Virus record (IMG/VR): IMGVR_UViG_3300012953_006207
Location: 1-64,000 of that record
DNA length: 64,000 bases
Strand: one strand, 5' to 3'
Source of the DNA: a virus
Shown here: positions 31,585 through 57,055 of the stretch, piece by piece
Layout: each line of letters opens with the position of its first letter
Numbering within the stretch: position 1 is the first letter of the stretch
Translations under genes and position numbers: made by a program
Notes under the pieces: model-generated
What the model was told of the DNA's origin: nothing
Databases searched by the model: none
What the model saw: the letters and a program-made list of their open reading frames with translations, nothing else

Positions 31585-31586
31585 TC

Positions 31587-32550: not shown

Positions 32551-32553
32551 ATT

Positions 32554-32877: not shown

Positions 32878-32878
32878 A

Positions 32879-40761: not shown

Positions 40762-40820
40762 AGACTGTACTGCATAGCAAGCGCGTTATAATTCGGGTTG
40801 TGCGCGTTTGTGTCCTAAGG

Positions 40821-40856
40821 CCCCACTTGAGATTGTCTGCTCAGGTGGGGTTTTTT
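40821..40856 (+). terminator. Rho-independent terminator
   Basis: CCCCACTTGAG...CTCAGGTGGGG-TTTTTT. Confidence 0.8.
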
Positions 40857-40895
40857 AATTTGACGTTTGCCGTGCGTGGTATTAAATTTTTTGAA

Positions 40896-41141
40896 ATGGA
40901 AACGATCATCACAAAGAGGAAGAAGAATCGATCAGATCACATTCATTCCAAAGTTAAAAACGTTTACAAAGTAATTATTGTTGAGCACGAGGGAGAGATG
41001 TGGGAAGTAGAGGAATGCCATAAGCTGAAAACAAATTTAGAAGATTTCAAAATCTCTCGCCAAGGGAAGTGGAGAAAAGTGGATAAGAGGAAGTTTACCG
41101 CTAATACTATTAATGATATAGATTGTTATCGAACTCGTTAA
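40896..41141 (+). CDS. Hypothetical protein
   Basis: TTGACG-17-TAAATT-7 nt-ATG. Confidence 0.55.
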   Translation: METIITKRKKNRSDHIHSKVKNVYKVIIVEHEGEMWEVEECHKLKTNLEDFKISRQGKWRKVDKRKFTANTINDIDCYRTR

Positions 41142-41170
41142 TTTCTCACAGCGTCACCTCACCCACCACA

Positions 41171-41204
41171 AAGTAGGGACCTTAATTGGTCCCTGCTTTC
41201 TTTT
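41171..41204 (+). terminator. Rho-independent terminator
   Basis: AAGTAGGGACC-TTAATT-GGTCCCTGCTT followed by a T-tract. Confidence 0.7.
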
Positions 41205-41355
41205 GTAGGTGTATATATACTCGATGGTAAGAGTACACTTTGACAGGTTATGTCTCGCTTAATTGCCAACCAACTAGACCATCAATAAGATCAAAATAAT
41301 CCATTTTTCCCAAATAAAGCAAATAAGGCAAATAAGTATTTTTTAGTGTTGACTT

Positions 41356-41425
41356 CCCCCCCCAGACCCCCGTGTCATCAGCCAAGGCTTGGCCAATGAC
41401 GTGGGGTCCCCAATTTTGCGTCAAG
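41356..41425 (+). repeat. GC-rich hairpin element copy 1 (arm A left, arm B right)
   Basis: C8-AGACCCCCG-TGTCAT-CAGCCAAGGCT-TGGCCAATGACG-TGGGGTCCCCAATTTTGCGTCAAG. Confidence 0.9.
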
Positions 41426-41561
41426 TATAAAAGCGGTATTTCATGCAGAAAAAAAAGTACTTATAACGCAAAAAAAACCTTGGCCTAAATCCAGAAATTG
41501 ATTAATCTAAGTACAGAGTTAAGAGACACAACAAAGAAACAAGAAAGCGAGAATACATATT

Positions 41562-42488
41562 ATGCCTATCCTAAAACAAACCACTTCCGACTTCGACTAC
41601 AACGTGGCTACCGTGCCGACTTACGTCAAAGACCCTCACACGGGCGAGTTCATTCGCACCGGAGTCCACGCCAACCAGCGACAAGATGACGGGCGCGTGG
41701 TCGGCCCTATCGTTTCGCATCGTTACGGGCTTGCCCAGAATAGCGATGTCATCAACATTGGCGAAGCTGCCATGCGTAACGCTGGCTTGCCGATGGATTC
41801 GGTGGAACGTAACGTGTCCGTGTACGGTGACGGCGAACGTATGCGCGTCACTTGGGATTTCCGCGACCAAACCAAGGCCGTGCGCGTTGAAGACCGCAAG
41901 GTCGGTGATGAGTTGGGCTTGCGCTTGTCACTGCAAAACTCCTTCAACCGCGAGACGAAGCTCTCGCTTAACCTTGGCTTGCTTCGCCTTGTTTGCTCCA
42001 ATGGCATGACAGCCTTGGACAACGAGTTCGGGCTTTCCCAGAAGCATAACTCCAAGTTGAACCTCGGCGCGATGTCCAGCGCATTGTCTCGCGCTTTGGA
42101 GTCGTTCAACTCCGGTGCTGCTACCGAGGTTTTCCACTTGCTCGCCTCCAAAGAGGTCGAACAGGAACAGGGACTCATTGCCCTGCAAAACATGGTCAAC
42201 GACAAGTTGTTCAGCGAACGCACTCGCAAGGGCATTGCCGAAATTTGGAATGCTCCAACCTTCGACGAAGACGGTGACCGCAACCTGTACAACCTGTACA
42301 ACGCGGGTACTCAGTACCTCACGCACTCCATCGCGGACAATCGCCGTGAACTTGCGGAGAAGACTTCGCGCCGACTGCTCACCACGCTGAACACGGCGGT
42401 GCGTTCCGAGGCAAACCTGACAACCCTCATCACTCCGCGCAAGACGCTGCAAGTGGTCGAGACTGTCGAGGACTCCCTCGCCATCTAA
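41562..42488 (+). CDS. DUF932 (DUF945)-family protein
   Basis: VS.RY...QN, L.NSFN, LGLLRLVCSNGM, KH, NLYNLYNA.T.Y.TH; GC-rich, C-ending codons. Confidence 0.85.
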   Translation: MPILKQTTSDFDYNVATVPTYVKDPHTGEFIRTGVHANQRQDDGRVVGPIVSHRYGLAQNSDVINIGEAAMRNAGLPMDSVERNVSVYGDGERMRVTWDFRDQTKAVRVEDRKVGDELGLRLSLQNSFNRETKLSLNLGLLRLVCSNGMTALDNEFGLSQKHNSKLNLGAMSSALSRALESFNSGAATEVFHLLASKEVEQEQGLIALQNMVNDKLFSERTRKGIAEIWNAPTFDEDGDRNLYNLYNAGTQYLTHSIADNRRELAEKTSRRLLTTLNTAVRSEANLTTLITPRKTLQVVETVEDSLAI

Positions 42489-42507
42489 GGGTAGGCTACC
42501 CAACCCA

Positions 42508-42557
42508 CAAATCCCTCGCCCTCTCCCCCATCCACGGGGGCGGGGGATTTTTTTTGT
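42508..42557 (+). terminator. Rho-independent terminator
   Basis: AAATCCCTCGCCCTC...GGGGGCGGGGGATTT followed by a T-tract. Confidence 0.75.
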
Positions 42558-42720
42558 ATTAATTAAATGCTTTTATTAGCGCGTCATTTCTGAGCGACAA
42601 ATCAATTTGCCAACCAAAAAACGCAGAAAGTGATCGGCAAGTTTTCGTGAAAAGGGGGGTTTTCTCGTGTGCGAAATTCGCCCGAAATACGAAATCTTCA
42701 CGGGCTGTTGACAAGAAAAG

Positions 42721-42789
42721 CTTGACGGCAAATTGGGGACCCCATGTCATTAGCCAAGATTTGGCCAATGACGCGGGGGTCTGGGGGGG
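42721..42789 (+). repeat. Hairpin element copy 2 (arm B left, arm A right)
   Basis: CTTGACGGCAAATTGGGGACCCCA-TGTCAT-TAGCCAAGATT-TGGCCAATGACG-CGGGGGTCTGGGGGGG. Confidence 0.9.
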
Positions 42790-42862
42790 CATGGAACTTG
42801 CTCATTAAAAAAAATGCTTTTCCTGTATTGACTTATTCCAAGAATTAAACGATATTTAGGTT

Positions 42863-43072
42863 ATGGACGCTTTCAGAATCGCATTGGACACCAAAAGAAG
42901 GCATGGGTACAACTATCAAAATGGACGGTGGATTCGTGGCTTTCAACACAACGGAACTGCGGATGATGAAATTCGTTGGATGAAATGGCAAAGACTAGAA
43001 AAAGCATTGCGAACGATAGATGAAAACACTTCTTACGAGGACATAATTAAAAAAGTGATGGGAGGCGAGTAA
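42863..43072 (+). CDS. Hypothetical early protein
   Basis: ATG 6 nt after the -10 of promoter 42828. Confidence 0.6.
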   Translation: MDAFRIALDTKRRHGYNYQNGRWIRGFQHNGTADDEIRWMKWQRLEKALRTIDENTSYEDIIKKVMGGE

Positions 43073-43623
43073 TGAGTTTTAATGATGATAAAAAAGAAAT
43101 TCAAGAACGAGTCATAGACTTAATTGATAAAACGAATGATAAGTTTGGCTTGGGCATGGCGTACCCGACTATCACCTACGACCTAAAAGGTACGGTGGCG
43201 GGTCAGGCATTCTATTATGAGAATAAGTTGAGACTTAATTCTATAGCACTTAAAAAGTACCGCGAACATTTTATTGAACAAACTGTTGGGCATGAAGTTG
43301 CTCACCTCACTGCGTTCAAACGACACGGCGGTGGGATTTCTCCTCATGGAACCGAATGGAAGAACTTCATGAGATTCTTCCGTCTCCCACCAGACCGTTG
43401 CCATACTTATGATTTGCCATCCGCTCGCGGTGGGGGCAGGAAGCGATACGTTTGCCAGAGTTGCCCCAAAGAGTTTAGCCTCAGCACAATCAAACACAAC
43501 AGGTGGCTGCGCGGTGAAAGCAAGCTCAGTTGCCAACGGTGTGGTGGTAAAGTTGTGTGGGAAAACACAGTGCCACAAAAGAAAAAGCCCTCGGAAGTAG
43601 GAATGGACTTGATTGAATTCTAG
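43072..43623 (+). CDS. SprT-like zinc metalloprotease
   Basis: G.VAGQA, HEVAH (HExxH), PHG.EWK..M, C-terminal CxxC..CxxC zinc ribbon. Confidence 0.9.
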   Translation: MSFNDDKKEIQERVIDLIDKTNDKFGLGMAYPTITYDLKGTVAGQAFYYENKLRLNSIALKKYREHFIEQTVGHEVAHLTAFKRHGGGISPHGTEWKNFMRFFRLPPDRCHTYDLPSARGGGRKRYVCQSCPKEFSLSTIKHNRWLRGESKLSCQRCGGKVVWENTVPQKKKPSEVGMDLIEF

Positions 43624-43643
43624 AAATGGAATAGTATAAGATT

Positions 43644-43895
43644 ATGAGAATGAAAGAAGCAATTAACGGCAGACTAGTTTACAACCAGAAGCGCAACCAA
43701 GTGGAACGGATTCGCTCTACCAACCTCAACGGCTCGAGTCTGATGGTGTCTCGGCACGGCGATGACTTGATGGCAGCTAAGCTCTCAGACCTTAGGTATG
43801 CCACTCAGAACGAGGTTGATGTTTATAAGGCTGAGACTGCCGTCAACCAATCGATGCAAAACGGAATTGTCACACGCAACGGAGTGACAGTCTAA
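43644..43895 (+). CDS. Hypothetical protein
   Basis: TTGATT-17-TAGTAT-6 nt-ATG. Confidence 0.6.
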   Translation: MRMKEAINGRLVYNQKRNQVERIRSTNLNGSSLMVSRHGDDLMAAKLSDLRYATQNEVDVYKAETAVNQSMQNGIVTRNGVTV

Positions 43896-43908
43896 CTTTA
43901 CTCGCTCG

Positions 43909-43953
43909 GCGGGTGGAGGGTTTTTCCGCTGGCCCTCCGCCCGCTTTCTTTTT
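43909..43953 (+). terminator. Rho-independent terminator
   Basis: GCGGGTGGAGGG...CCCTCCGCCCGC-TTTCTTTTT. Confidence 0.75.
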
Positions 43954-44120
43954 CTGGACTTATTCTAAGAATTAGTGTAGATTGGAGTATGAAGAATGAA
44001 ACTATCTCACCAACGCAACAAGTACGGCTTCACCTAGGCTGTATATTTATACAACTTAAAAACAATCGGATGTCTAAGATTTGGTGGCATCTGAAAGGAA
44101 TAGTTCGCTCTTTAATCTAA

Positions 44121-44576
44121 ATGAAAAAAAATGCTATTTATATCACTCTTTTGTTTCTTAGTTTTGCTCTCAATGCTGGGAAGAAGGACCTGACAGACCA
44201 ACAAGTTGTAGCTCTCACGATTCTCGGGGAGGCGCGTGGAGAAGGGGCGGGGGGTATGTATGGCGTCGCCTGTGTTATAGCCGAACGCTCTATCAACTGG
44301 AAAAGGAACGGGCGCAAACAAACTCCCCGACAGGTATGTTTAGTAGACAAACAATTCGAATGTTGGAACAACGGAAAGATACCCAGCGAAAGATTACTTG
44401 ATACCCCACAAGGAAAGTATGCTCTTTATTTGGCTATGAATATAAAAAGAGTAGACCGTAGCTATGTAAACTTTGCTGACCATTTTTGTCATATCAAAAA
44501 AAATCCATATTGGGCGAGTGGACGCAAGCCAGTAGCTATCATAAAAAAACATAAGTTCTTCAAACTCAGGGGTTGA
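44121..44576 (+). CDS. SleB/CwlJ-like cell-wall hydrolase (Hydrolase_2) with signal peptide
   Basis: Signal peptide; ALTILGEARGE...G..GVA.VI..R, QF.CWN, PYWA, I..H.FF. Confidence 0.85.
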   Translation: MKKNAIYITLLFLSFALNAGKKDLTDQQVVALTILGEARGEGAGGMYGVACVIAERSINWKRNGRKQTPRQVCLVDKQFECWNNGKIPSERLLDTPQGKYALYLAMNIKRVDRSYVNFADHFCHIKKNPYWASGRKPVAIIKKHKFFKLRG

Positions 44577-44607
44577 CTTATTCCAAGAATTAACCGATAC
44601 TGAATAC

Positions 44608-44898
44608 ATGGTAAGCGGATTGGTTAAACTACAGGCTAAAGAGGACGCACGTTCTTCCACCAAAAAAAGCATCGAAAAGCACGGGCCGTGGTTCGTGGTT
44701 GCTCGCGATTTCGTGCGAGACACAAAAGGACGCTTGGGGTATTACGTTTACCCCGCCAACGATGTAACGAATCTGCTCATGCAAAGCATGGCCGACAAAC
44801 GCGCAGGGTGTGAGTCTGCGTTGCCCCATCTATGGTCGGGCGTTCTGCGTCACGACGAGTGCGAACTCCTCAAGGGTTCAGCGAATATGTACCCTTAA
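44608..44898 (+). CDS. Hypothetical early protein (paralog of 51753)
   Basis: VK..A...A...TK.....HGP.F. Confidence 0.6.
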   Translation: MVSGLVKLQAKEDARSSTKKSIEKHGPWFVVARDFVRDTKGRLGYYVYPANDVTNLLMQSMADKRAGCESALPHLWSGVLRHDECELLKGSANMYP

Positions 44899-44942
44899 TT
44901 GCGTTGACTTATTCCAACAATTAACCCATAATTAGAAATCTT

Positions 44943-45296
44943 ATGAAAGCGGAACCATTAAAATCAAATCACTACAACCAAGCTCAAGAACTTGGTATAA
45001 CTAAAATCGTTCTCGAATGGTCGGGAGGAAGCGACGAGGGGCATCTCCATGTTTCTACTCAAGTAGCCGACAGGTTGGACGAAATCTCTGACGAGAAGCG
45101 TAAAACGATATATAGACTTGAAAGCGACATTGAGGAGTGGGGTTATGACGTTTACGAATATAGTGGCGCGGGTGACGGCAATCCCTACGGAGACACAATT
45201 AAGTACGACCTTGTAAAAGGTACAGTCTCAACTGTGGAATGGTATACCAAAGAAGTCTACGACGAACCAGAAACTTTCACCTTGTCCGTTGATTAG
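44943..45296 (+). CDS. DUF6878-like protein
   Basis: GIT.I..EWSGGSDEG...GAGDG..YG.TI..D. Confidence 0.6.
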   Translation: MKAEPLKSNHYNQAQELGITKIVLEWSGGSDEGHLHVSTQVADRLDEISDEKRKTIYRLESDIEEWGYDVYEYSGAGDGNPYGDTIKYDLVKGTVSTVEWYTKEVYDEPETFTLSVD

Positions 45297-45298
45297 AC

Positions 45299-45655
45299 AT
45301 GACGCCTTGGAAACACGCTGAATCCTCTGTTGCCCGATGGGGTGGAGAACCTACTGACTACGTTGCTCTGCATGATTGGTTTGATGAGACAAAGCAATTC
45401 ACTGGTGATTGGACTCATCGCGCATTGCGTCACCACTCTGCGGGTATTCAATGGGCCGTTGAAAGGTTTGGACACGCCATAAGAAACTCAAAGGGTAAAC
45501 TTATACCAACTAAAGCACTTGCGGAACAGCACGTTACAGAGGACTGCGGATTCATTCCGACACCACAAGATTGGCTCATGCAAGTTAAAGTGAATCCAGA
45601 CCCTTGGATGTTAAAAGTTAAAACTAAAAGCGTAACAAAATTGGAAGTAAAATGA
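45299..45655 (+). CDS. DUF6915-like His-rich protein
   Basis: P..HA.SS..RWGG...DY..LH.WFD.TK, HRALRHH..GI, AEQHV.ED.G.IP...DWL. Confidence 0.75.
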   Translation: MTPWKHAESSVARWGGEPTDYVALHDWFDETKQFTGDWTHRALRHHSAGIQWAVERFGHAIRNSKGKLIPTKALAEQHVTEDCGFIPTPQDWLMQVKVNPDPWMLKVKTKSVTKLEVK

Positions 45656-45825
45656 AAAGATACTCAGTAAAAATTAGAGAGGTACACGAACAGCAGATAT
45701 TTGTATCAGCTAAAGATGCAGATGACGCCAAAGAAAAAGCTGCCGAAGGAGTAGGGGATTTAGCTAATGGTACAGAGTTTTTGTATGCGCTGGATTCAGA
45801 CACTTGGGAAGTAGAGGAGGACTAA
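45652..45825 (+). CDS. 57-aa hypothetical protein (DpnD/PcfM-like pattern)
   Basis: MKRYSVKIREVHEQQIFVSAKDADDAKEKA...EED; hand-translated. Confidence 0.6.
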   Translation: MKRYSVKIREVHEQQIFVSAKDADDAKEKAAEGVGDLANGTEFLYALDSDTWEVEED

Positions 45826-45987
45826 ATGACCAAAGAAGAAGTCAGAGAACAAATCCAAGAGGACATAATTACCTATCTTGAAGGCTTGCCATCTGGGTGG
45901 CTGATGGGGTTTGAGAAAATGCCTCAAGAGGAAATTGATGCACTTTGCCAAATCGTAGTAGACAACTTTAAGAAATTGGAGGACTAA
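45826..45987 (+). CDS. 53-aa acidic hypothetical protein
   Basis: GGAGGACTAAATG junction; MTKEEVREQIQEDI...LED. Confidence 0.6.
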   Translation: MTKEEVREQIQEDIITYLEGLPSGWLMGFEKMPQEEIDALCQIVVDNFKKLED

Positions 45988-45990
45988 ATT

Positions 45991-46164
45991 ATGAAATACA
46001 AAGTACCAGTTAGTTGGCAGATGTACGGTCACGTTACCGTAGAAGCAGATACGCTTGAACACGCAGCAAAAATTGCTGAATCAGACATGGGTATTGGCTT
46101 GCCTGACAATGGTGAGTATGTAGAATCATCATGGGAAGTGGATTGGGCGGTATTGGAGGACTAA
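45991..46164 (+). CDS. 57-aa hypothetical protein (DpnD/PcfM-like pattern)
   Basis: MKYKVPVSWQMYGHVTVEADTLEHA...LED. Confidence 0.6.
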   Translation: MKYKVPVSWQMYGHVTVEADTLEHAAKIAESDMGIGLPDNGEYVESSWEVDWAVLED

Positions 46165-46332
46165 ATGAAAACATCAGAAAGAACAGAACAACTTGCCCGT
46201 GACATGGTTGATTCATGGGATGACAAAGACTTGTATAGTTTTGCGGTAGACATGGTAACAGAGAACCTTGAGAAGTGCGACGAGGAAGAATTTAAGTCTG
46301 AATGGAATAACTATTACGGAGAGGATGCATAA
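46165..46332 (+). CDS. 55-aa acidic protein (paralog of 31587)
   Basis: GGAGGACTAAATG junction; LARDMVDSW...EEFKSEWNNY. Confidence 0.6.
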   Translation: MKTSERTEQLARDMVDSWDDKDLYSFAVDMVTENLEKCDEEEFKSEWNNYYGEDA

Positions 46333-46532
46333 TGGAACATAATCACAAACAAGACCAACACGATAGAATAATGATTAACCGAATCAAGGACGACCTTGAG
46401 GATTGGTTGACTACTCATGGAGAAATCACAATGGGCAGCGAGATGGTTAAAGATGTTCACCGACTCATTGACGAATCGGTGCATCGCACCAAACTCATGC
46501 GAAAGGATTGGATGAAGCCAGACAGAAGTTAA
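46332..46532 (+). CDS. Hypothetical early protein
   Basis: TAATG coupling. Confidence 0.55.
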   Translation: MEHNHKQDQHDRIMINRIKDDLEDWLTTHGEITMGSEMVKDVHRLIDESVHRTKLMRKDWMKPDRS

Positions 46533-46592
46533 AGTCATAGCCAAATAAATTTGCCCATTTAAATAAATATAAATAAATAATAATCCCCTTCA

Positions 46593-46658
46593 CCCCCCCA
46601 GACCCCCGTGTCATCATCCAGATGGCCAATGACGTGGGGTCCCCATTTTTGAGTCAAG
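46593..46658 (+). repeat. Hairpin element copy 3 (A left, B right)
   Basis: C7-AGACCCCCG-TGTCAT-CATCCAGA-TGGCCAATGACG-TGGGGTCCCCATTTTTGAGTCAAG. Confidence 0.9.
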
Positions 46659-46852
46659 CCTAAAGTGAGGAATTTTTTTAGAAAAAGTGCCTCTGAGGCA
46701 TTGACTTTTTCTAGTAATTGAATTAGATTGGTTGAAGATGAACGACGCGGAAAGAGTAGCACAGGACAAACGGATTTTAGAATGGTGGAGGCTCACAAAG
46801 AATTTATCAAGTAGGACAGCGGATGTCCCACCTCCCGTGGTAGGGTATGCAT

Positions 46853-46987
46853 ATGAAAAAAAACAAGAAACAACCGAAGGCGCGAGTGAATCCCGAAGGC
46901 TACATGGGCAGCGCATCGCGTGAGCATAAAGTGAAGAAGGGCAAAGGCTCTTACAAGCGGAACAAAAAAATTAACCCAGAGGACTAA
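46853..46987 (+). CDS. ArfA-like 44-aa ribosome-rescue peptide
   Basis: MKKNKKQPKARVNPEGYMGSASREHKVKKGKGSYKRNKKINPED contains the ArfA KKGKGSYxR motif; has its own promoter. Confidence 0.6.
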   Translation: MKKNKKQPKARVNPEGYMGSASREHKVKKGKGSYKRNKKINPED

Positions 46988-46994
46988 AAAGATT

Positions 46995-47411
46995 ATGAGT
47001 AAAACAAGTGTTCAAAAATGCGGAACCAACTGGCGCGTGATTCTCACAGGAGACGCCCAAGCAATCGAAACCAAACATTGGTCAATGTTCAATCATGGCG
47101 CGACAAGCTCCGACCTCGAATGGGAAACGGCAAATTGCGCGTGGTTCTGGTCTACTCCTGAAAAGATTTTGAAAGCGTTTACCAACGCGCATCTTTTCTC
47201 ATACTTGAATCAATTTGATTTGATAGGAGACGAACCAGAAGTGGCAGGGCATGAAGCAAAAGCTCACAATGACGCAAAGCAGGAATTTTTTGCGATGGGG
47301 AATATGCCTAGCTTCAAGCCGTTTCGCTCTGTTTCAATCCTGAATTTGGATTGCTTCGCGATGGGTACGGGTTCGGCTCGTGCTGAAAAAATGGCAGTAG
47401 AAACCAAGTAA
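46995..47411 (+). CDS. Hypothetical early protein
   Basis: GAGG SD; protein-like ORF. Confidence 0.6.
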   Translation: MSKTSVQKCGTNWRVILTGDAQAIETKHWSMFNHGATSSDLEWETANCAWFWSTPEKILKAFTNAHLFSYLNQFDLIGDEPEVAGHEAKAHNDAKQEFFAMGNMPSFKPFRSVSILNLDCFAMGTGSARAEKMAVETK

Positions 47412-47430
47412 AGAAAAAGGTTTATTTGAT

Positions 47431-48183
47431 ATGAAAATTCTCTCTATCGATGCAGACGCAAAAACCGTTAAAGGTCTCAAGAAAGGCTATCGCACTGCGA
47501 TTAGCTACCTTGCGCCCAGTAACGCCAGCGGTGTAATGAATACTTGCCCAAGTGCAAGCAAAGGGTGTCGGGCTGCTTGTCTTTACGGGGCAGGTCGTGC
47601 CAAGTTCACGCCATCAATTCCAAAGGCGCGAATCAACAAAACAAAGTTTTTTCATTCCGACCCTGTAGGCTACGGCCAGCAGCTTTACAAGGAATTAAAA
47701 GCTCACCAGAAAAGCTCTGCGCGTAAAGGCTTAACACCTACCGTGCGCCTCAACGGAACAAGCGATATTGCTTGGGAGGATTTCATTCTAGAGGAAACGG
47801 GGAAAAACGTTTTTGAATCTTTCCCCGATTTACAATTTTATGACTATACCAAGCGGACAAACCGCGTTGCGGATTATGCAGACGGCAAGCTTCCGAAAAA
47901 TTACCACCTCACGTTTTCAAAGAGTGAAAACACCAGCGACGAACAAGTTGCAAAGATTCTGGGTTGGGGTGTCAACGTTGCGGTAGTCTACGCAAACGAA
48001 TTGCCCGAAGCTGACTTTGACGGTTGGCAGGTTATCAATGGCGACGAAAACGATTTACGCTTCCTCGACCCCATCGGCGTTGTTGTTGGTCTAAAGTATA
48101 AAAAGACTTCAGCAACTGAGGAGGACAAAAACGGATTTGTTCGCGAGTTGAAATTTGCAAACGCAGTTCTTGAGACTGCATAA
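47431..48183 (+). CDS. GP88-like phage protein
   Basis: CP.AS.GC.AACL...GR, VRLNGTSDI, QFYDYTK, NYHLTFS, GD..DLRFLDP..VVVGLK.K. Confidence 0.8.
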   Translation: MKILSIDADAKTVKGLKKGYRTAISYLAPSNASGVMNTCPSASKGCRAACLYGAGRAKFTPSIPKARINKTKFFHSDPVGYGQQLYKELKAHQKSSARKGLTPTVRLNGTSDIAWEDFILEETGKNVFESFPDLQFYDYTKRTNRVADYADGKLPKNYHLTFSKSENTSDEQVAKILGWGVNVAVVYANELPEADFDGWQVINGDENDLRFLDPIGVVVGLKYKKTSATEEDKNGFVRELKFANAVLETA

Positions 48184-48290
48184 CAAAAAACCGAAAGGAA
48201 AAAAAATGCTATGGATAACGTTATCTATCATATCAGCCGTAGTACTTTGTAAATTGGTATCAAAATAAAAAAATAAAATAATAGCTCCCC

Positions 48291-48364
48291 CTTGACAGGG
48301 GGGGCAAATTGGGGACCCCATGTCATTAGCCGAACACGGCCAATGACGCGGGGGTGTGGGGGGG
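48291..48364 (+). repeat. Hairpin element copy 4 (B left, A right)
   Basis: CTTGAC...AAATTGGGGACCCCA-TGTCAT-TAGCCGAACA-CGGCCAATGACG-CGGGGGTGTGGGGGGG. Confidence 0.9.
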
Positions 48365-48455
48365 TACAGAACTTGCTTCGGAACCATTTAAAAAAAAGAA
48401 AAAAAATGACCGTTAGGGGGTTGACTTATTCCAAGAAAGAGAGTAGATTAAGAGA

Positions 48456-48845
48456 GTGGACAGGGGTAAGACCCAGTACGAGCCCAAGGGCAGGATTACA
48501 AAATCTAGGCAGACAGTATGCGACGAGGGCAAGAAGCTGTAAGACCCTCGGCCTGAAACTGCCGTTTAAATTTCTCGCAACAACGCGAGGAAGCATAGGT
48601 GAAGAACATTAAACGTCCGTGAGAGGCAACGGCCTATGCAACAATTTACTGGGAGGCAGAATACAGTCTAGGCAAGCCTAACGTAGCGAACGGGGTACGC
48701 GCCCTGTTAGGGACGAGGAAGCACCAGTAGACGTTTTCGCAATAACGCGGGAATGAAACTAACTAGAAAGGTAACATAGTGCAGGAGGTTGGCCAGAGAA
48801 GGCGGTTACCGCTGGGCCGTAAAGCACTTGAAAAATGCCTCTTAA
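48456..48845 (+). ncRNA. Candidate large structured ncRNA (~390 nt), family unknown
   Basis: Starts right after the TTGACT-17-TAGATT promoter; no credible ORF; many nested stems (see findings). Confidence 0.65.
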
Positions 48846-48855
48846 TTTTTGATAA

Positions 48856-49062
48856 ATGAAAAACTACAAAACATACCAAGCCCGTAACGCTGTCAAAGCA
48901 GCGCAAGTCACCAACCACATCAAATCCCGCAAGGCTCAAGGCGTTGAACACAACGAAGCTAAAGCTGAAGCGTATTATATATATAATATAAAACAGGGTA
49001 AGAAAATTATTCTAAACACCCTAAACTACGCAACGCCTACCAAATCTCTGGTATGTAAATAA
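48856..49062 (+). CDS. Basic hypothetical protein
   Basis: ORF directly downstream of the ncRNA candidate. Confidence 0.5.
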   Translation: MKNYKTYQARNAVKAAQVTNHIKSRKAQGVEHNEAKAEAYYIYNIKQGKKIILNTLNYATPTKSLVCK

Positions 49063-49089
49063 ATAATAAAAATAACAAGTCTGGGTTCA

Positions 49090-49150
49090 CCCCCAGACCC
49101 CCGTGTCATTGTCCTTGGCCCATGACGTGGGGTCCCCAAAAACGGTCAAG
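49090..49150 (+). repeat. Hairpin element copy 5 (A left, B right)
   Basis: CCCCCAGACCCCCG-TGTCAT-TGTCCT-TGGCCCATGACG-TGGGGTCCCCAAAAACGGTCAAG. Confidence 0.9.
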
Positions 49151-49218
49151 CTTTATTTTTTTTATTTATTTAAATGGTGGGACAGCCAATGTCCTACCCC
49201 CCATGGTAATCTATACGC

Positions 49219-49425
49219 ATGAAGTTTGAGACAGGAACACAAGTACAGCACCGCGACAACCCCATGTGGAAGGCCGTTGTGGTGCGCGACCTCAACCCCC
49301 GCAAGCCAGTGAATAGCTGTGTGATGGTGAATCACAACGGGCGGGAAGTGCCAATGGGCAAGAGTCTTTTGCGGGTATCCTTCCACGCAGACGCCAAAAA
49401 AGAATTTGGCGAAGTTGTAAGCTAG
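49219..49425 (+). CDS. Small SH3/KOW-like protein (paralog of 54002)
   Basis: V.H.......VV.DLNP..PV...V.V. Confidence 0.55.
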   Translation: MKFETGTQVQHRDNPMWKAVVVRDLNPRKPVNSCVMVNHNGREVPMGKSLLRVSFHADAKKEFGEVVS

Positions 49426-49462
49426 GACAGCGGATGTCCTACCTCCTATGCTAGATTTAGAT

Positions 49463-49663
49463 ATGAATATGAAGCAAGTAAAGATAGTGATAAACGAAAA
49501 TGATACACTTTGCCGTATCAGCATCAACGGATTCGCAAGCGAACACAAATGCGAGGTGCATGAGTCCGACCACGAAGGTAAAGACGCCACCACAATCAAC
49601 ATCGACGGCGTGGGAGATTTTATTTCTTACAACGATTGCAAAAGCTGGGAAGTGATGGACTAA
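49463..49663 (+). CDS. Hypothetical early protein
   Basis: ATG after palindrome-type promoter 49422. Confidence 0.55.
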   Translation: MNMKQVKIVINENDTLCRISINGFASEHKCEVHESDHEGKDATTINIDGVGDFISYNDCKSWEVMD

Positions 49664-49667
49664 AATT

Positions 49668-49859
49668 ATGAGTATGAGTAACAACAAAAAGACGGAGCTA
49701 GAAGCTCGAAAAGTATACGCACACGGCGTGAACAAAGACACACACTTCAACACCCCACAAGGGCCGAAGCCATATCCAAAAGTCAATTACGACAAGATGT
49801 GGAACGTTGAAGGTTATTATAGCGACGATAACGGAAACGACATCAGAGACAGAGACTAG
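49668..49859 (+). CDS. Hypothetical early protein
   Basis: Operon-packed ORF. Confidence 0.5.
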   Translation: MSMSNNKKTELEARKVYAHGVNKDTHFNTPQGPKPYPKVNYDKMWNVEGYYSDDNGNDIRDRD

Positions 49860-49868
49860 GAAACGATT

Positions 49869-50171
49869 ATGGAAAAAAAGAATTACATTATCAATCTACA
49901 CGCAGTAGGTGAGAAGAAGATTACCAGCGGTTACGCTGGCCCCCGTGAAGTATGCGGTCACTTTAGCACACCCGCAAAGGTTGGCACTATCGCCTTTGAA
50001 GAGGCTAAGATGAATGCAGTAGACTACTACTGGAATCAAAACAAGCGTTACTGGCACGGCTACCGCATTGGCAAGTTAGAAGTAGAAGTTGGGCGCGAGT
50101 CTGTCAGCGTAATGACTCCCGCTTGGGACTATCACAAGGGACGCACGTTCCCCGTATGGGAGGAGGTATAG
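49869..50171 (+). CDS. Hypothetical early protein
   Basis: Operon-packed ORF. Confidence 0.55.
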   Translation: MEKKNYIINLHAVGEKKITSGYAGPREVCGHFSTPAKVGTIAFEEAKMNAVDYYWNQNKRYWHGYRIGKLEVEVGRESVSVMTPAWDYHKGRTFPVWEEV

Positions 50172-50344
50172 AATCAAAAGCAGAAGATACAACGCAGACA
50201 AAGAAACGAGTAAACAGTTTTACGCTAGAAGAAAAAAGGAGATGGAAGATTATTTTAATCACCCTTATTATAAAACTTACTCTGAAAAAATTTGGGCCGA
50301 ATATAAAAAAGCTAACAAATAGTATTGTCTTTGTCGAAAAAGTT

Positions 50345-50410
50345 AAAATTGGGGACCCCATGTCATCGTCCATTGTGGCCAATGACACGGGGACCCCATT
50401 TTGCGTCAAG
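50345..50410 (+). repeat. Hairpin element copy 6 (B-type arms on both sides)
   Basis: AAAATTGGGGACCCCA-TGTCAT-CGTCCATTG-TGGCCAATGACA-CGGGGACCCCATTTTGCGTCAAG. Confidence 0.9.
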
Positions 50411-50479
50411 GAAAAAGTTTATTGATAATTCTTTTAGGTAGGACGGCGGATGTCCTACCCCCTATGGTAGATTAGACAC

Positions 50480-50647
50480 ATGATGATGAACGACAACAAC
50501 AAGATGAACAAAGAACAATTCAAAAACGAAGTGCTGGCCCTAGTGTCAGAGGATGCGTTGCCAATGGTGGACGCACTAACTGACCAAGGATTTGCCGAAG
50601 GCTGGACACCAGCCGAAGTAGCTGGACAATGCGAAGCTGATGCATAA
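50480..50647 (+). CDS. 55-aa hypothetical protein (MMMNDNNK...)
   Basis: ATG 6 nt after -10; hand-translated. Confidence 0.55.
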   Translation: MMMNDNNKMNKEQFKNEVLALVSEDALPMVDALTDQGFAEGWTPAEVAGQCEADA

Positions 50648-50702
50648 AAGAAATTAAAGGGTAGGACGGCGGATGTCCGACCCCCTGTGTTATATTTACT
50701 AC

Positions 50703-50846
50703 ATGATTATGAGCATATACGAAGTTCAAACCCACGACGGAGACGCTACCCTTGGATGGATACAAGGACATGATGACGACCACGCCCAGCGCGTAGCCGA
50801 GAGGCTTTACTGCAAAGGCGTACTGGTTGTTCTTTGCGATGACTAA
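50703..50846 (+). CDS. 47-aa hypothetical protein
   Basis: ATG 6 nt after the -10 TATATT; hand-translated. Confidence 0.55.
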   Translation: MIMSIYEVQTHDGDATLGWIQGHDDDHAQRVAERLYCKGVLVVLCDD

Positions 50847-50899
50847 AAAACTATGGGCCAGCGTGATGGCCTTGGAGATCACGCCCTTATTAAATCATT

Positions 50900-51097
50900 A
50901 TGATTGAACTCGGAATGCAAGTGGAGGATATGCGCGGTTACCTTGGTGTGGTCGCTGCCTCCCCACGCGGTGGCAAGTGGTTCATCCTCAAAAAGGATGG
51001 ACGCATGGTTCGCCGTGCTGACCATGAGATTCGTGAATACGACGAGTCTTATTGCCCAGCCTTCGAAAAGTGGCTGGAGAAGCGTTCGCTTCGTTAG
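50900..51097 (+). CDS. Small SH3-like hypothetical protein
   Basis: IELGMQV....G.LGVV pattern; followed by terminator. Confidence 0.5.
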   Translation: MIELGMQVEDMRGYLGVVAASPRGGKWFILKKDGRMVRRADHEIREYDESYCPAFEKWLEKRSLR

Positions 51098-51103
51098 TAT
51101 CAA

Positions 51104-51130
51104 CCCCCCCTAGTGGGGGGCTTTAATTTA
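51104..51130 (+). terminator. Probable terminator hairpin
   Basis: CCCCCCC-TAGT-GGGGGG followed by a T-rich tract. Confidence 0.55.
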
Positions 51131-51155
51131 TTTTTATTTATATATTTATATCGTT

Positions 51156-51548
51156 ATGGAAAAAGTACAAGTTTATCGCAACCTGCATCGGACAGAAGAA
51201 GACGGAACGCACGTTTATAGCGTTCGCAATGACAAGGGCATTGTCGTAGACCACGTTGCAGAAATTACATTGAGTCGTCCTATCTTGAGAGTCGGCCCCA
51301 AAGGTAATCAGCGAGTGCGTGATGAGAAACGTAAAAACGTTCATGCTTATATCCAAGGCATGAAGATGAAAGAGTCAGTGATTGATGACCCCCGCTCAGG
51401 CGAAAAAAAGTGCGAGTGGCAAAAGATTACTTATAACCCTTATAAACATAAGAGTTTTGTTTTAGTAAAGGACGAGTCCGTTGCAGTGCGTGAAGCGTGG
51501 TTTGTTGAGATTCGTCGAGATGGTGTTTGGGCGTGGCTCCCGGAGTAA
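51156..51548 (+). CDS. Conserved phage hypothetical protein
   Basis: KV.VYRNLH...YSVR...G..RVR.EKRKNVHA...ITYNPYK...FV. Confidence 0.7.
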   Translation: MEKVQVYRNLHRTEEDGTHVYSVRNDKGIVVDHVAEITLSRPILRVGPKGNQRVRDEKRKNVHAYIQGMKMKESVIDDPRSGEKKCEWQKITYNPYKHKSFVLVKDESVAVREAWFVEIRRDGVWAWLPE

Positions 51549-51601
51549 GAACCCCAGTTCCCTGAACGCTAATAAATACCAAACAATTAATATCAATATT
51601 G

Positions 51602-51657
51602 AAAATTGGGGACCCCATGTCATTAGCCTTGGCCAATGACGCGGGGGTCTGGGGGGG
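51602..51657 (+). repeat. Hairpin element copy 7 (B left, A right)
   Basis: AAAATTGGGGACCCCA-TGTCAT-TAGCCT-TGGCCAATGACG-CGGGGGTCTGGGGGGG. Confidence 0.9.
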
Positions 51658-51752
51658 TACGATTCTTGCTAAGTCCATGCCCAGTAAAGTTGTGAATAAC
51701 TTTCGAGGAACTCCCCTTGACTTATTCCAGTAATTAAGGTAGGTTTATCTCG

Positions 51753-52004
51753 ATGATTAAAACGACTACAGTCAAAGTAACCGCCAGACCCAACGCCAAG
51801 GCCCGCACCAAAAACCGCCTTCGGGATCATGGTCCCATGTTCAAGGACGTGACCGAATTAAACACTGGCCACAGTGTGCGCCACGATGAAAAACTTGGCG
51901 ACTGTGTGCTGCTGCGTTCTTTGAAGAAGCCACAGCTAGGCTGGGCGCAGCCTTGGAATGGCTGGTTGTCTCTTGATGAAATTGTTGTGAATAAGTTTGA
52001 GTAG
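51753..52004 (+). CDS. Hypothetical early protein (paralog of 44608)
   Basis: Promoter 51717; HGPMF motif. Confidence 0.6.
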   Translation: MIKTTTVKVTARPNAKARTKNRLRDHGPMFKDVTELNTGHSVRHDEKLGDCVLLRSLKKPQLGWAQPWNGWLSLDEIVVNKFE

Positions 52005-52047
52005 AAACCCCCTTGACTTATTCCAGTAAATCCCTTATTGTATTCCC

Positions 52048-52362
52048 ATGATGAACGACGACCTACGAGACCTAATGCCCACCAGTGAAGAGTTCTACGC
52101 CAGCATGGCCCCCGCGCCAGTTGACGAGAACGGAATGACGCCTGACGAGCGTGACGAGTACGAGTCCGAGTATAATGCTTATCTCGATTCCATTGGCACT
52201 TCCTTTGCCGAAGTGCAGGAGAAATCCCGTCAGTTCGCTGACGACCTTGAGAACGCTTACAAGTGCGACGACGACGAAGACGACCATGACAGCATGAATG
52301 ACGGCCACGGAACGCTGGCGGATGATGCATGGCACGATGCCAACGAATACCCTGAGTGGTAG
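52048..52362 (+). CDS. Highly acidic 104-aa protein (possible DNA mimic)
   Basis: Hand count 32 D/E versus 5 K/R; own leaderless-type promoter. Confidence 0.65.
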   Translation: MMNDDLRDLMPTSEEFYASMAPAPVDENGMTPDERDEYESEYNAYLDSIGTSFAEVQEKSRQFADDLENAYKCDDDEDDHDSMNDGHGTLADDAWHDANEYPEW

Positions 52363-52368
52363 GGCCAG

Positions 52369-52447
52369 AGCAACGCCCGTGCCAACATGGGCCATTGTGA
52401 ATAACTTGGCCAATGACGCGGGGGTCTGGGGGGGCATGATTCCTGCT
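52369..52447 (+). repeat. Hairpin half-element copy 8 with sigma54-like sites and DnaA-box-like 9-mer
   Basis: AGCAACGCCCGTGCCA...TGTGAATAAC-TTGGCCAATGACGCGGGGGTCTGGGGGGG-CATGATTCCTGCT. Confidence 0.85.
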
Positions 52448-52559
52448 GTGGTTCCTGAGAATTTTTTTTAGAAAAAGTGCCTTTGGGGGGTTGACTTTTT
52501 CCAACAATTGAACGATATTTAAGAAGTCAGCAGGACAACAAACAGAAAGAGAAAACAAG

Positions 52560-52679
52560 ATGAGCATACAGAGAGAAGACATCGAATGGGATTCAGCGCA
52601 AGCCGAATCAGAGTACGACATCAGCGAAGAGAAAATGGCCAAGTTGGAAAACATGGCGTGGGACAACGACAACGACTAG
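52560..52679 (+). CDS. 39-aa acidic peptide
   Basis: MSIQREDIEWDSAQAESEYDISEEKMAKLENMAWDNDND; promoter 52491 with A-rich leader. Confidence 0.55.
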   Translation: MSIQREDIEWDSAQAESEYDISEEKMAKLENMAWDNDND

Positions 52680-52693
52680 ACGAAAGGAATCAG

Positions 52694-53059
52694 ATGAACG
52701 ATAACAAGTTGTATAACAAGCGGGCCTTCGGACTTCCGAAGATGGAACTCCCCAACGGAACTATGAGCCTGACCTACTCCGGTCACGCTCGGACTGCTGC
52801 TGCACGTCCCGAACGTTTCGGGTACGCCGAGAACATCGACCTGCCTCGCGCAATCAACCTGAACGATTGCGAAGTGGTCGAAGCTGAAATGGCAAAGGGT
52901 AACCCTGTACCGGAAAAGATTGTTGTGCGTTACCCGTACAGCGACAACATGGACTTGGTTATGCCTATGTATATGGACGGATTCGTTAAGACCGTATGGC
53001 TTAATGACCGTTACGACCAGCACCGCACCCTCGACAAGCGTCGCTATGCACGGCCTTAA
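52694..53059 (+). CDS. Conserved phage hypothetical protein
   Basis: AAGGA SD; L.YS.HA...K.VVR...VKTVWLN...D.H.TLD...Y. Confidence 0.65.
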   Translation: MNDNKLYNKRAFGLPKMELPNGTMSLTYSGHARTAAARPERFGYAENIDLPRAINLNDCEVVEAEMAKGNPVPEKIVVRYPYSDNMDLVMPMYMDGFVKTVWLNDRYDQHRTLDKRRYARP

Positions 53060-53222
53060 CGACAAGCAACAGTTCGGAGAATGGCTCGACAAGTTTGACG
53101 GGCCTCTCCGTTCTCTTTATGAAGACTATAAAGAAAAGAACTATAAACCGTTGTCATACTTTGCGTGGTGCTTGGGCGTGTACCAAGAAACCAAGTATGC
53201 CGACACGTTGAGGAATAATTGA
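53046..53222 (+). CDS. Hypothetical protein
   Basis: Overlaps upstream stop. Confidence 0.45.
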   Translation: MHGLNDKQQFGEWLDKFDGPLRSLYEDYKEKNYKPLSYFAWCLGVYQETKYADTLRNN

Positions 53223-53292
53223 TATGGAATTGATTGTATTTATTACAAGCTCAAGCATAGTCGCCTTCTGGTACGCCGAGGCGTTCCACTAA

Positions 53293-53367
53293 AGCAAGGC
53301 CCGTGCCAGCACAGGCCATTGTGAATAACTTGGCCAATGACGCGGGGGTCCCCCAATTTGCGTCAAG
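53293..53367 (+). repeat. Hairpin half-element copy 9 (chimeric A/B arm) with sigma54-like site and DnaA-box-like 9-mer
   Basis: AGCAAGGCCCGTGCCA...TGTGAATAAC-TTGGCCAATGACGCGGGGGTC-CCCCAATTTGCGTCAAG. Confidence 0.85.
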
Positions 53368-53457
53368 GTTATTTTCAAGAAAGTTATCCACGGTTTGCGA
53401 ATAACTTTTTCCAGAAAGTCCCTTGACTTTTTCCAGCAATGTGTTATCTTATTACAG

Positions 53458-53694
53458 ATGAACGACAACGGAACATTCATAGGGCTAGTCAAGGCTGGCA
53501 AAGCTCAAAACGTAGTACCCACTTCCCGCAAGATGAACATGGCAGCAGCATTGGCGGGGGCGGTCAGCTTACGCGACGCAGAACAGTACTTCCGTAGGCT
53601 ACAACACGCAAACAACATGGGAACCACTGAGGCGGACTATGCAGAACTAGAACGCAAGTTTTATGCGGAACACGGCTACCCTCATGGGTATTAA
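53458..53694 (+). CDS. Hypothetical early protein (MND start)
   Basis: ATG after promoter 53423. Confidence 0.6.
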   Translation: MNDNGTFIGLVKAGKAQNVVPTSRKMNMAAALAGAVSLRDAEQYFRRLQHANNMGTTEADYAELERKFYAEHGYPHGY

Positions 53695-53760
53695 AAAAAA
53701 TCAAAAAAAATTAGAAAAACCCCTTGACTTTTTCCAGCAATTAGACTATATTTAAACAAG

Positions 53761-53955
53761 ATGAACGACATAAAAAAGACCAAAACCACTAACTGGACAA
53801 GCTACAAACGCGAACGTTTCAACAAGGCGGAATTCAACGCTGAAATGGCTCGCATTGAAAAGCAGACTTTTGTACTGCAACACATTACATCTTTCTGCAT
53901 CGGGGCAAGCATTGCGCTCGGATTCGTATTGATTCACATGATTGTAACTGGATAA
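53761..53955 (+). CDS. Small membrane protein (MND start)
   Basis: C-terminal hydrophobic helix; promoter 53724. Confidence 0.6.
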   Translation: MNDIKKTKTTNWTSYKRERFNKAEFNAEMARIEKQTFVLQHITSFCIGASIALGFVLIHMIVTG

Positions 53956-54001
53956 AAAAACCGCTTGACTTTTTCCAGAATATCCCTTACATTATAAACA
54001 G

Positions 54002-54199
54002 ATGAACGACATAACAGTAACAGCACGAGTCAAGCACCACCGCAACCACGCCAAGACTGGCACGGTGGTCGCAGACCTTAACCCCAAGGCTCCGGTGTAC
54101 GGAGTCGTAAGAGTAAAGTGGGACGATAACGAACACGAAAGCCGTCACCACAAGTTCACCCTTCGGCGTTTGCAGTACGCATGGCCGACCAACAACTAA
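54002..54199 (+). CDS. Small SH3/KOW-like protein (MND start; paralog of 49219)
   Basis: RVKH......GTVV.DLNP..PV...VRVKWD. Confidence 0.6.
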   Translation: MNDITVTARVKHHRNHAKTGTVVADLNPKAPVYGVVRVKWDDNEHESRHHKFTLRRLQYAWPTNN

Positions 54200-54214
54200 A
54201 AAATTTAAAGAGAC

Positions 54215-54415
54215 ATGGATAAAGAATTAAAACAGTTCACTATCACAATGGAAAGCGGTACGCGCTTCGGAGGCAAGTATCGTGACGAGGCTCACGTCCG
54301 CGATGCTAACAAATGGTTTAGCGGTAAAATTGTTAAGATTGAACAACGCCCACTCTGGACACCTGAAGAGGAGGCAGAGATGGACGCAGACAAGGCATGG
54401 CATCGCGCCTACTAA
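54215..54415 (+). CDS. Hypothetical early protein
   Basis: ORF before the final terminator. Confidence 0.55.
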   Translation: MDKELKQFTITMESGTRFGGKYRDEAHVRDANKWFSGKIVKIEQRPLWTPEEEAEMDADKAWHRAY

Positions 54416-54489
54416 AATCGGAGGTTATAGTCATGTTGTGTTTAGCAATCATCACCTTACTAGTCATCGTTTACTAGTCGTTCGTCATC

Positions 54490-57030: not shown

Positions 57031-57055
57031 GCCAGAATTTAATTATTATCTGAAT

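Follow-up and report, generated by a model that had tools for sequence, protein, structure and literature searches.

PeSL-type linkers have been described in T4-like phages (PMC2839356, PMC4122927). These stem-loops are intergenic, lie beside sigma-70-like promoters and often have polyG/polyC stems; the available part of the account also reports that one PeSL worked as a terminator in a reporter assay and that one crossover of an RB49 mini-circle was sequenced within the PeSL loop, yielding a chimeric PeSL (PMC2839356). A literature search revealed no PeSL-type linker in another phage lineage, the supplementary PeSL lists lying outside this search, and no hairpins with exchange-recording arms, of which the PeSL supplements may hold chimeric or two-allele cases. 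Here, we analyze a family of nine hairpins, denoted c1 to c9, in a stretch of 64,000 nucleotides of phage DNA (hereinafter, the window: positions 1 to 64,000 of the IMG/VR virus record IMGVR_UViG_3300012953_006207, which encompasses 80,696 b and is estimated to be ~51% complete). We lean toward the reading that these hairpins are the stem-loop half of PeSL-like linkers in a non-T4 phage, that they insulate early transcription units and serve as homology patches for cassette exchange, and that their alternative outer arms are scars of crossovers in the hairpin core.

The resemblance between the window hairpins and the PeSLs, as far as the available part of the PeSL account goes, covers the intergenic stem-loop beside a conserved sigma-70-like early promoter and a start codon, the G/C-run stems, the clustering in a hyperplastic region of small accessory open reading frames (ORFs), the occurrence at indels and replacements between close relatives, and the existence of a second promoter class that can form its own version of the linker (PmSL in nt-1). 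The PeSLs, to which a preliminary description of the window had likened the hairpins, are indeed the closest known system (PMC2839356, PMC4122927). Unlike the hosts of the described PeSLs, the window phage is not recognizably T4-like, and its hairpins are composite and much longer (60–75 nt), each consisting of a constant polar core with conserved mispairs, a variable tip and one or the other of two outer-arm alleles on each side. Two further differences are that the arms of neighboring hairpins are matched across each cassette and that many of the window promoters are near-leaderless in spacing.

In the folds of the full copies, the outermost common stem comprises 6 bp (GACCCC / GGGGTC), followed inward by a small asymmetric internal loop, with CG opposite T or A opposite CG, and by a core stem of 6–7 bp (TGTCAT / ATGACG) that is closed by a T.G mispair; above the core stem, one or two mispairs precede a 3–6-bp tip stem of variable length. 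Beyond the 6-bp stem, the arms are of two types, namely, arm A, a C-run on the left or a G-run on the right, and arm B, AATTGG on the left or CCAATT on the right, often ending in CTTGAC or GTCAAG. Left and right A arms pair perfectly, and so do left and right B arms, whereas an A arm and a B arm pair in the shared 6 bp only. The left and right A arms are unequal because a conserved 13-nt extension of the right A arm is absent from the left one. The loop is the most variable part among the otherwise identical c2, c4 and c7, and in c8 and c9, it contains the motif TGTGAATAAC. In an alignment of the variants, 82.8% of the cells pair, compared to 18–45% with the partners slid. The nine hairpins, with scores from a covariance model of the family, are as follows.

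41356..41425, + strand: hairpin c1, arms A-B, core 41373-41401, with a TTGACT box abutting the left arm; 60.8 bits on the + strand and 37.8 bits on the - strand
42721..42790, + strand: hairpin c2, arms B-A, core 42745-42773; 60.9 bits; the right arm continues into a conserved GG-N10-GC stretch that ends at ~42803
46593..46658, + strand: hairpin c3, arms A-B, core 46609-46634; 60.5 bits
48291..48366, + strand: hairpin c4, arms B-A, core 48321-48348; 56.8 bits; preceded by a separate C5/G7 mini-hairpin
49079..49151, + strand: hairpin c5, arms A-B, core 49104-49127; 53.7 bits
50345..50410, + strand: hairpin c6, arms B-B, core 50361-50387; 58.5 bits
51598..51660, + strand: hairpin c7, arms B-A, core 51618-51641; 58.2 bits
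52364..52434, + strand: hairpin c8, left half diverged and weakly A-like (shares CCCGTG), standard A right arm; 19.3 bits, E 0.16
53293..53367, + strand: hairpin c9, left half diverged, chimeric A/B right arm, A up to the shared GGGGTC and B beyond; 16.2 bits, E 0.97

All nine elements of the preliminary description were thus recovered, seven as full copies and two as diverged ones, and most start where it had placed them, except that c5 starts at ~49079 rather than 49090 and c7 at ~51598 rather than 51602. Its "half copies" at 52406 and 53330 are real but, judging by the folds and by the weak full-length matches to the covariance model, are complete hairpins whose left half has diverged and whose loop is long; typing of these left halves as A was rejected given alignment scores of 5 vs 3–4. 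The fixed polarity of the core stood as well: the pattern TGTCAT-N6-14-GGCCMATGAC has 7 matches on the + strand of the window and none on the - strand, with the same counts in the 80,696-b record, against a mean of 0.00 over 100 dinucleotide shuffles of the window. The same holds for the variable stretch of 6–11 nt in the core, for the T.G at the stem base (6/7 window copies, and 9/10 distinct variants when relatives are included) and for the order of the arms, A-B, B-A, A-B, B-A, A-B, B-B, B-A, x-A and x-A/B. Altogether, these observations support the view that the hairpins are one family of folded, polar, intergenic elements located at cassette boundaries.

The family is specific to this part of the genome. 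The arm motifs GGGGACCCC and GGGGTCCCC together occur at 9 sites in the record, every one of these inside the elements, and the covariance model, which scores the full copies at 54–61 bits on the + strand vs 33–42 bits on the - strand, detected no further copy in the rest of the genome. Neither the model nor a core-like pattern matched any of the 44 distant loci encoding GP88 relatives (0/44), and among the genomes of 185,579 bacterial and archaeal species, 2 matches were obtained, both lacking the right arm and located in GC-rich coding-like DNA, which we read as chance. An Rfam search at E<=1 over 40500-54500 gave no match on any element; a sub-threshold match to Rfam P9 was seen at 51045-51124.

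Every hairpin is located 1–232 nt downstream of a + strand ORF (9/9), and 8/9 are located 29–57 nt upstream of a promoter, six of the TTGACT family and two of a second class, so that the linker is laid out as stop codon / stem-loop / promoter / ATG. The exception is c1, with no family promoter downstream and a DUF932 gene starting at 41562. The family promoter, which consists of a C-run, TTGACT, a T-rich spacer of 16 or 17 nt, a TAnnnT-like box and a nearby ATG, is represented by 11 near-identical + strand copies, at 42828, 44573, 44904, 46701, 48421, 51717, 52013, 52491, 53423, 53724 and 53965. The second-class motif, located immediately upstream of an ATG, comprises a small palindrome (GGTAGGAC..GTCCTACC), a C-run and TGGTA. 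The promoters and promoter-like motifs that follow the hairpins are listed next.

42828..42856, + strand: family promoter TTGACT-17-GATATT, 38 nt after c2
46701..46729, + strand: family promoter, 43 nt after c3
48421..48449, + strand: family promoter, 55 nt after c4
49176..49218, + strand: second-class promoter-like motif, 29 nt after c5 and directly before the ATG at 49219
50437..50479, + strand: second-class promoter-like motif, 31 nt after c6, with a repeat at ~50660
51717..51745, + strand: family promoter, 57 nt after c7
52491..52519, + strand: family promoter, 57 nt after c8
53423..53450, + strand: family promoter, 56 nt after c9

A family promoter follows each of the 4 A right arms, at +38 to +57, and a second-class motif follows 2/4 B right arms, at +29 and +31. 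Two sigma factors are encoded by the phage, an ECF-like one (10565-11224) and a second one (12872-13798), and either might read the second-class motif. The possibility that the hairpin itself is a promoter, raised by the TTGAC-N17/18-TGTCAT arrangement in c1 and c2, was rejected given that the spacing is 23 nt in c4, that c6 and c7 lack TTGAC and that the second hexamer has no A at its second position.

Several observations on the promoters and the motifs around them can be added. In most family promoters, the ATG is located only 6–8 nt past the second box, a spacing that suggests leaderless mRNAs, and several of the ORFs that follow share the initial ATGAACGAC. The GG-N10-GC stretch is present after all 4 A right arms (42787-42803, 48362-48378, 51655-51671 and 52432-52448); we take it to resemble the sigma-54 -24/-12 consensus, the c2 version being GGCAT-N5-TTGCT. 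Second-class motifs are found at 46814, 49180, 50441 and 50664, at ~3415 in an insertion in the metagenome contig L091, and on the other strand of L009. The latter and L010 are more distant related phages that were reached via the GP88 gene and have promoters similar to those of the window. The loop motif TGTGAATAAC occupies 52393-52405 in c8 and 53318-53330 in c9 and occurs also upstream of promoters at ~51690, ~51990 and ~53395, as well as in L010 at ~4455, 11760, 12440 and 13175, sometimes as an inverted pair; it may be a candidate operator for a phage regulator. Finally, the promoter at 48421 leads into ~400 nt (48456-48845) with no convincing ORF, where relatives have insertions at 48640-48647 and contigs of other samples stop at ~48643 and 48729-48731.

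To follow the linkers through evolution, we compared the window with 12 relatives, one IMG/VR contig (L008) and 11 of the 53 metagenome contigs that matched a right-arm pattern. The flanks were inspected for 13 of these 53 loci, 11 of which proved to be relatives and two (L065 and L088) did not; the remaining 40/53 were judged by the single match and a GC content of 0.50–0.75 alone. All 12 are strains of the same phage, with ~89–99% identity over the aligned blocks, a closeness that makes evolutionary statistics weak. They contain 36 orthologous hairpins that are co-oriented within each contig and have the same arm types as those of the window. The bins that contain hairpins are mostly 94–100% identical (with the lowest values, 84–90%, at c6), compared to values down to 63–74% in nearby ORF bins; this is what would be expected of exchangeable modules joined by conserved linkers, with distant alleles replacing the modules but not the linkers. 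The B-B copy c6, which has an A.A mispair and a T-A base pair in its arms in the window, has complementary GGGGACCCC / GGGGTCCCC arm blocks in five relatives, with one mispair beside the core (A/C in four of them and G.T in L086); the T.G is present in four relatives, and the L086 patch resembles the A-B copies.

Several events of cassette turnover are clear among these strains. In L105, the 50489-50660 cassette has been lost between two repeats of the second-class motif, and in L086, the segment 51733-51984 has been lost between two family promoters (51717 and 52013), the same cassette being replaced in 4 other contigs. An extra cassette made of a promoter and an ORF is inserted exactly between the stop codon and the left edge of c9 in L091 and L098; the one in L091 arrived without a hairpin of its own. 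The left edge of c8 is a breakpoint in 6 relatives. In L105, a different hydrolase gene is joined directly to the unit to the right of c5, c5 itself is absent and homology begins at 49152; c5 is also the only place where presence or absence of a hairpin alone is polymorphic among the 12 relatives. We also aligned to the island contigs from four other marine runs (X2, X4, X5 and X9), bearing in mind that contigs drop rare forms and not counting as rearrangements joints with short sides (20–60 nt) at the repeated promoters; loose ends were found at both edges of c5 (49079 and 49151) and, in large numbers, at promoters. No RNA run was found among those that contain the stretch. In runs X4 and X5, the contig depth of the segments 42183-42643, 46332-47253 and 48176-50019 is 10–25x that of the remaining island, and the segments are joined in a different order, for example, 48568 to 42591; these modules appear to be common to a much more abundant relative in the X4/X5 samples.

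The arms of successive hairpins follow a simple rule: the right arm of each hairpin is of the same type, inverted, as the left arm of the next one, at 6/6 strictly typed junctions, a count that excludes the left halves of c8 and c9. Unlike plain alternation, this rule covers c6. The arm swapping by inversion that had been proposed initially is therefore better replaced by matched inverted arms at the ends of each segment. A two-allele model would account for this arrangement. Two self-complementary outer-stem alleles, A'-core-A and B'-core-B, would recombine inside their common core, such that one B cassette put into an A site produces A-B ... B-A, as in c1-c2 and c3-c4, and two B cassettes produce A-B, B-B, B-A, as in c5-c6-c7. 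Because a crossover would join directly oriented cores only, the polarity of the core would stay constant while the arms seem flipped. Under this model, the mixed A-B and B-A hairpins would be footprints of old core crossovers, the paired arm blocks of c6 in the relatives are what would be expected of a parental allele, and the chimeric A/B arm of c9, joined at the shared GGGGTC, would fit as well.

Other origins of the arm pattern were considered and rejected. Inversion of the whole element followed by repair of the core takes more steps than the two-allele crossover, and inversion between near-palindromic cores would flip genes and make the cores symmetric, neither of which is seen. Arm pairs specific to individual cassettes do not fit either, given that left B arms, and likewise right B arms, are more alike among themselves than are the two arms of a single cassette.

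In the reading toward which we lean, the core crossovers would be one part of a broader role. In the + strand transcript, the hairpin would insulate neighboring units, either by attenuating or terminating transcription or by serving as a protective 3' end; at the DNA level, hairpins and promoters would together constitute conserved linkers for ordinary homologous recombination with co-infecting relatives or with excised circles, and such recombination would insert, delete and replace cassettes. A number of results weigh against parts of this scenario. The core folds more stably on the - strand in 7/7 copies, with both RNA and DNA parameters (with the DNA parameters, the advantage is small, 0.5–3.7 kcal/mol), it forms an uninterrupted helix on that strand in 4/7 copies, and the + strand A.C mispairs correspond to G.T on the - strand. 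A role of the + strand RNA is therefore not favored, and selection for a stable + strand RNA was rejected; the better fold of the - strand may leave room for a folded - strand role. A simple scan for intrinsic terminators passed none of the whole hairpins (0/9) and flagged only a sub-hairpin of c3 (46634-46646). A T-run begins 0–6 nt after the stem in the A-B and B-B copies (5–6 nt in A-B, and immediately, as ATTTTG, in c6), but the B-A copies have a G-run there instead, followed by the conserved GG-N10-GC stretch. The statistical weight of the arm rule is modest, with P of 0.016–0.018 for independent arms and 7/140 orderings (0.05) for random placement of the seven elements, and in one reading of L009, the flanks do not follow the rule. 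We infer the core crossovers from the arm pattern alone, and copy-specific features, such as the GTG in the right arm of c4 that is retained in 3 relatives, are stable across the relatives, so that hairpin exchange would be infrequent on that time scale.

The breakpoints bear on the same question. Among the 23 breakpoint positions read in 41–54.6 kb against the 12 relatives, 9 lie in promoter zones (2.2 expected, P 0.0003) and 3 lie within 5 nt of the outer edge of a hairpin (49152, 52364 and 53293; 0.33 expected, P 0.004) under a uniform null that is lenient because viable breakpoints are mostly intergenic, and 0/23 are inside the cores. Likewise, the contigs of the four marine runs listed no joint in a core and no circle-type joint at the hairpins. 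Hence the expectation that breakpoints would fall at the elements is borne out for a region of cassette gain, loss and swapping, with some breaks at hairpin edges, but not for the cores. Promoters serve as sites of exchange no less than hairpins do, and the exchanges resemble homologous recombination wherever a linker is shared. The claim of selection on a folded, strand-specific structure was not borne out: the covariation score, 0.057 vs 0.048 for shuffled data, was reached by 118/500 shuffles, because the ten distinct variants are too alike, and the + strand fold is not favored. Of the compensatory change in the loop, one clean switch from A-T to G-C is left, formal covariation being at the shuffle level, and the T.G and A.C mispairs common to the copies may be inherited from a common ancestor copy. 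On the whole, then, the initial interpretation holds with respect to a hairpin family at cassette boundaries, a shuffling region and the likeness to PeSLs, and is not supported with respect to strand-specific selection and core breakpoints.

Of the competing explanations, one takes the hairpins to be purely regulatory and the arm pattern to be incidental, the element being a site of RNA processing or stability or a DNA or RNA target of a phage regulator, with the right arm as part of the downstream promoter region, A going with the sigma-70-like family and GG-N10-GC, and B with the second class. This accounts for the 4/4 A right arms that lead into a family promoter and a GG-N10-GC stretch, for the 2/4 B right arms that lead into a second-class motif, for the two sigma factors and for the occurrence of the c8/c9 loop motif upstream of other promoters in the window and in L010. 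It also fits the internal loops and mispairs, which are conserved in all copies, and the better conservation of the hairpins compared to the neighboring ORFs. RNase III processing hairpins between the early genes of T7 have internal loops and span roughly two helical turns. The window hairpins are of similar size, have internal loops and lie between early genes, and processing would leave a protective 3' stem; however, each window cassette has its own promoter, and the T7 sites are not known to have alternative arms. We nevertheless find a purely regulatory role unlikely, since it gives no reason why the next left arm should be an inverted copy of the previous right arm. Moreover, the family promoters start downstream of the right arm, which is therefore outside the cassette's own transcript unless there is read-through. 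A selfish miniature palindrome, REP/BIME- or MITE-like, that colonized the intergenic regions of the island with no role for the phage appears very improbable to us. The hairpins are indeed dispersed, GC-rich, imperfect palindromes confined to intergenic regions, with a lineage-specific sequence that is absent from the 44 distant loci and has only the 2 chance-like matches in the 185,579 species genomes, and related phages have different hairpin families. However, no match to a Y1 (HUH) transposase (PF01797), the cognate enzyme of REP/BIME elements with RAYT, was found in the roughly half-complete record, and a single element is flanked by neither target-site duplications nor terminal inverted repeats, its two arms being of different types. 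In addition, the elements keep a fixed position with respect to stop codons and promoters and a fixed polarity with respect to the genes, and, c5 aside, the 12 relatives show no hairpin-alone polymorphism.

A different alternative, which we consider distinctly unlikely, is a dedicated, structure-dependent site-specific system, in which the folded hairpin, perhaps of the - strand, is the crossover site of a recombinase that comes from the missing half of the genome or from the host, and the cassettes carry inverted arms like attC or dif modules. The matched-arm rule at 6/6 junctions, the fixed polarity of the core, the - strand core that is uninterrupted in 4/7 copies and more stable in 7/7, the conserved mispairs and the loop that varies most among the otherwise identical c2, c4 and c7 are all compatible with such a system, as is the completeness of the record, only ~51%. 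The alternation of A-B and B-A is formally like that of C/D and D/C in the dif modules of Acinetobacter plasmids, which, in the available part of the source, likewise have asymmetric two-arm sites, fall into two kinds by the inward arm, alternate by kind (compare c1-c5) and shuffle accessory genes as modules (PMC13141974). In the same part of the source, however, pdif sites are 28 bp long, with XerC and XerD arms around a 6-bp spacer, are inverted whole, spacer included, and include no D/D site, whereas the window arms are separated by a core hairpin of 23–29 nt, the center never inverts (7/7 cores on the + strand) and the B-B site c6 breaks strict alternation (PMC13141974). A B-B site and a "spacer" of 23–29 nt are unfit for Xer-type sites, and no Xer-type recombinase was detected in the record. 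The window elements presumably share no sequence likeness with the dif consensus. As for integrons, attC sites are, like the window hairpins, imperfect palindromes of variable length at cassette boundaries, with a variable tip, all co-oriented and with mispairs that could give strand choice. Their end boxes are R'' RYYYAAC and R' GTTRRRY, and neither motif was found in any of the elements with 10 nt on each side (0/9). The likeness to attC suggested in the preliminary description is thus weakened by the motifs and by the promoters: every cassette has its own promoter, unlike integron cassettes, with 11 family promoters and the second-class motifs inside the window array. No IntI was found in the record, and the crossover would be central in the window hairpins and not at one end. 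The preliminary description saw no integrase or recombinase in the window, and domain searches agree for the whole 80.7 kb, ~51% of the genome: there was no match to the tyrosine recombinase domain (PF00589) in the 80,696 b, with the control positive in 14/14 genomes, and the serine recombinase, Y1 transposase, RecA and RecT domains (PF00239, PF01797, PF00154 and PF03837) were likewise absent from the roughly half-complete record. With 0/23 breakpoints in cores, most breakpoints at promoters, including two clean promoter-to-promoter deletions, and the extra L091 cassette inserted without its own hairpin, the rearrangements also speak against a dedicated crossover site. An extension of this idea, a new kind of phage cassette platform in which the polar, mispaired hairpin core is the crossover site of an unseen recombinase and the cassettes bring a promoter and inverted A/B arms, strikes us as improbable too. 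If true, it would be a third solution beside integrons and dif modules, with the mixed A-B/B-A junctions as recombination scars, serving the early accessory genes of a virus, which may include anti-defense functions; a dedicated recombinase, if found, would make this a new cassette system.

The PeSL-like linker, the reading that we prefer, would place the logic of the PeSLs in an unrelated, uncultured marine phage. The fact that two related phages have hairpin families of their own points to regulatory linkers as a widespread means by which large phages maintain an interchangeable stock of early accessory genes. Because two distinguishable arm alleles surround one core, each junction would record which cassette joined which, and such a readable record makes modular shuffling testable in metagenomes. 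Specifically, under the crossover model, an A-A hairpin should remain after a B cassette is lost, and newly inserted cassettes should come with matched arms.

The hairpin families of L009 (5600-16100) and L010 (3100-13200) are dispersed at cassette boundaries as well but are unrelated to that of the window. The hairpin of L009 is a G7-loop-C7 structure between CTTGAC and GTCAAG, whereas that of L010 has a TACGYACACGTA core, 12/12 on one strand, with side arms that are C-rich or G-rich.

The hairpins reside in an accessory island of ~13 kb, in which the genes are on the + strand. As expected from the initial account of GC-rich elements within an AT-rich genome, the GC content of the island, at 40–54 kb, is 0.435–0.480 compared to 0.342–0.415 in the rest of the genome. 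The products encoded in the island include DUF932, SprT-like, Hydrolase_2 cell-wall hydrolase, DUF6915, GP88 and L5 gp82-like proteins, along with many small ORFs without an assigned family. The earlier calls of DUF932 and GP88 were both confirmed, whereas the "ArfA-like" ORF (46995-47411) had no Pfam match at E<=0.01. A megablast search with 41000-54000 against 50,697 phage records gave zero matches, and tblastn with a 663-aa protein of the structural region also gave zero. The best terminase match was to the non-T4 Microcystis phage MaeS, with 25% identity; a Gp23 search of the ~51% complete record gave no match, and the control genomes likewise gave none.

Outside the island, a block of likely sugar or cell-envelope modification genes at 14909-34129 encodes two 2OG-Fe(II) oxygenases, a polysaccharide deacetylase, a glycosyltransferase, an aminotransferase and an acetyltransferase. 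A UvdE-type UV endonuclease is encoded at 33227-34129, and nucleotide-sugar epimerases at 56963-57949 and 59458-60408.

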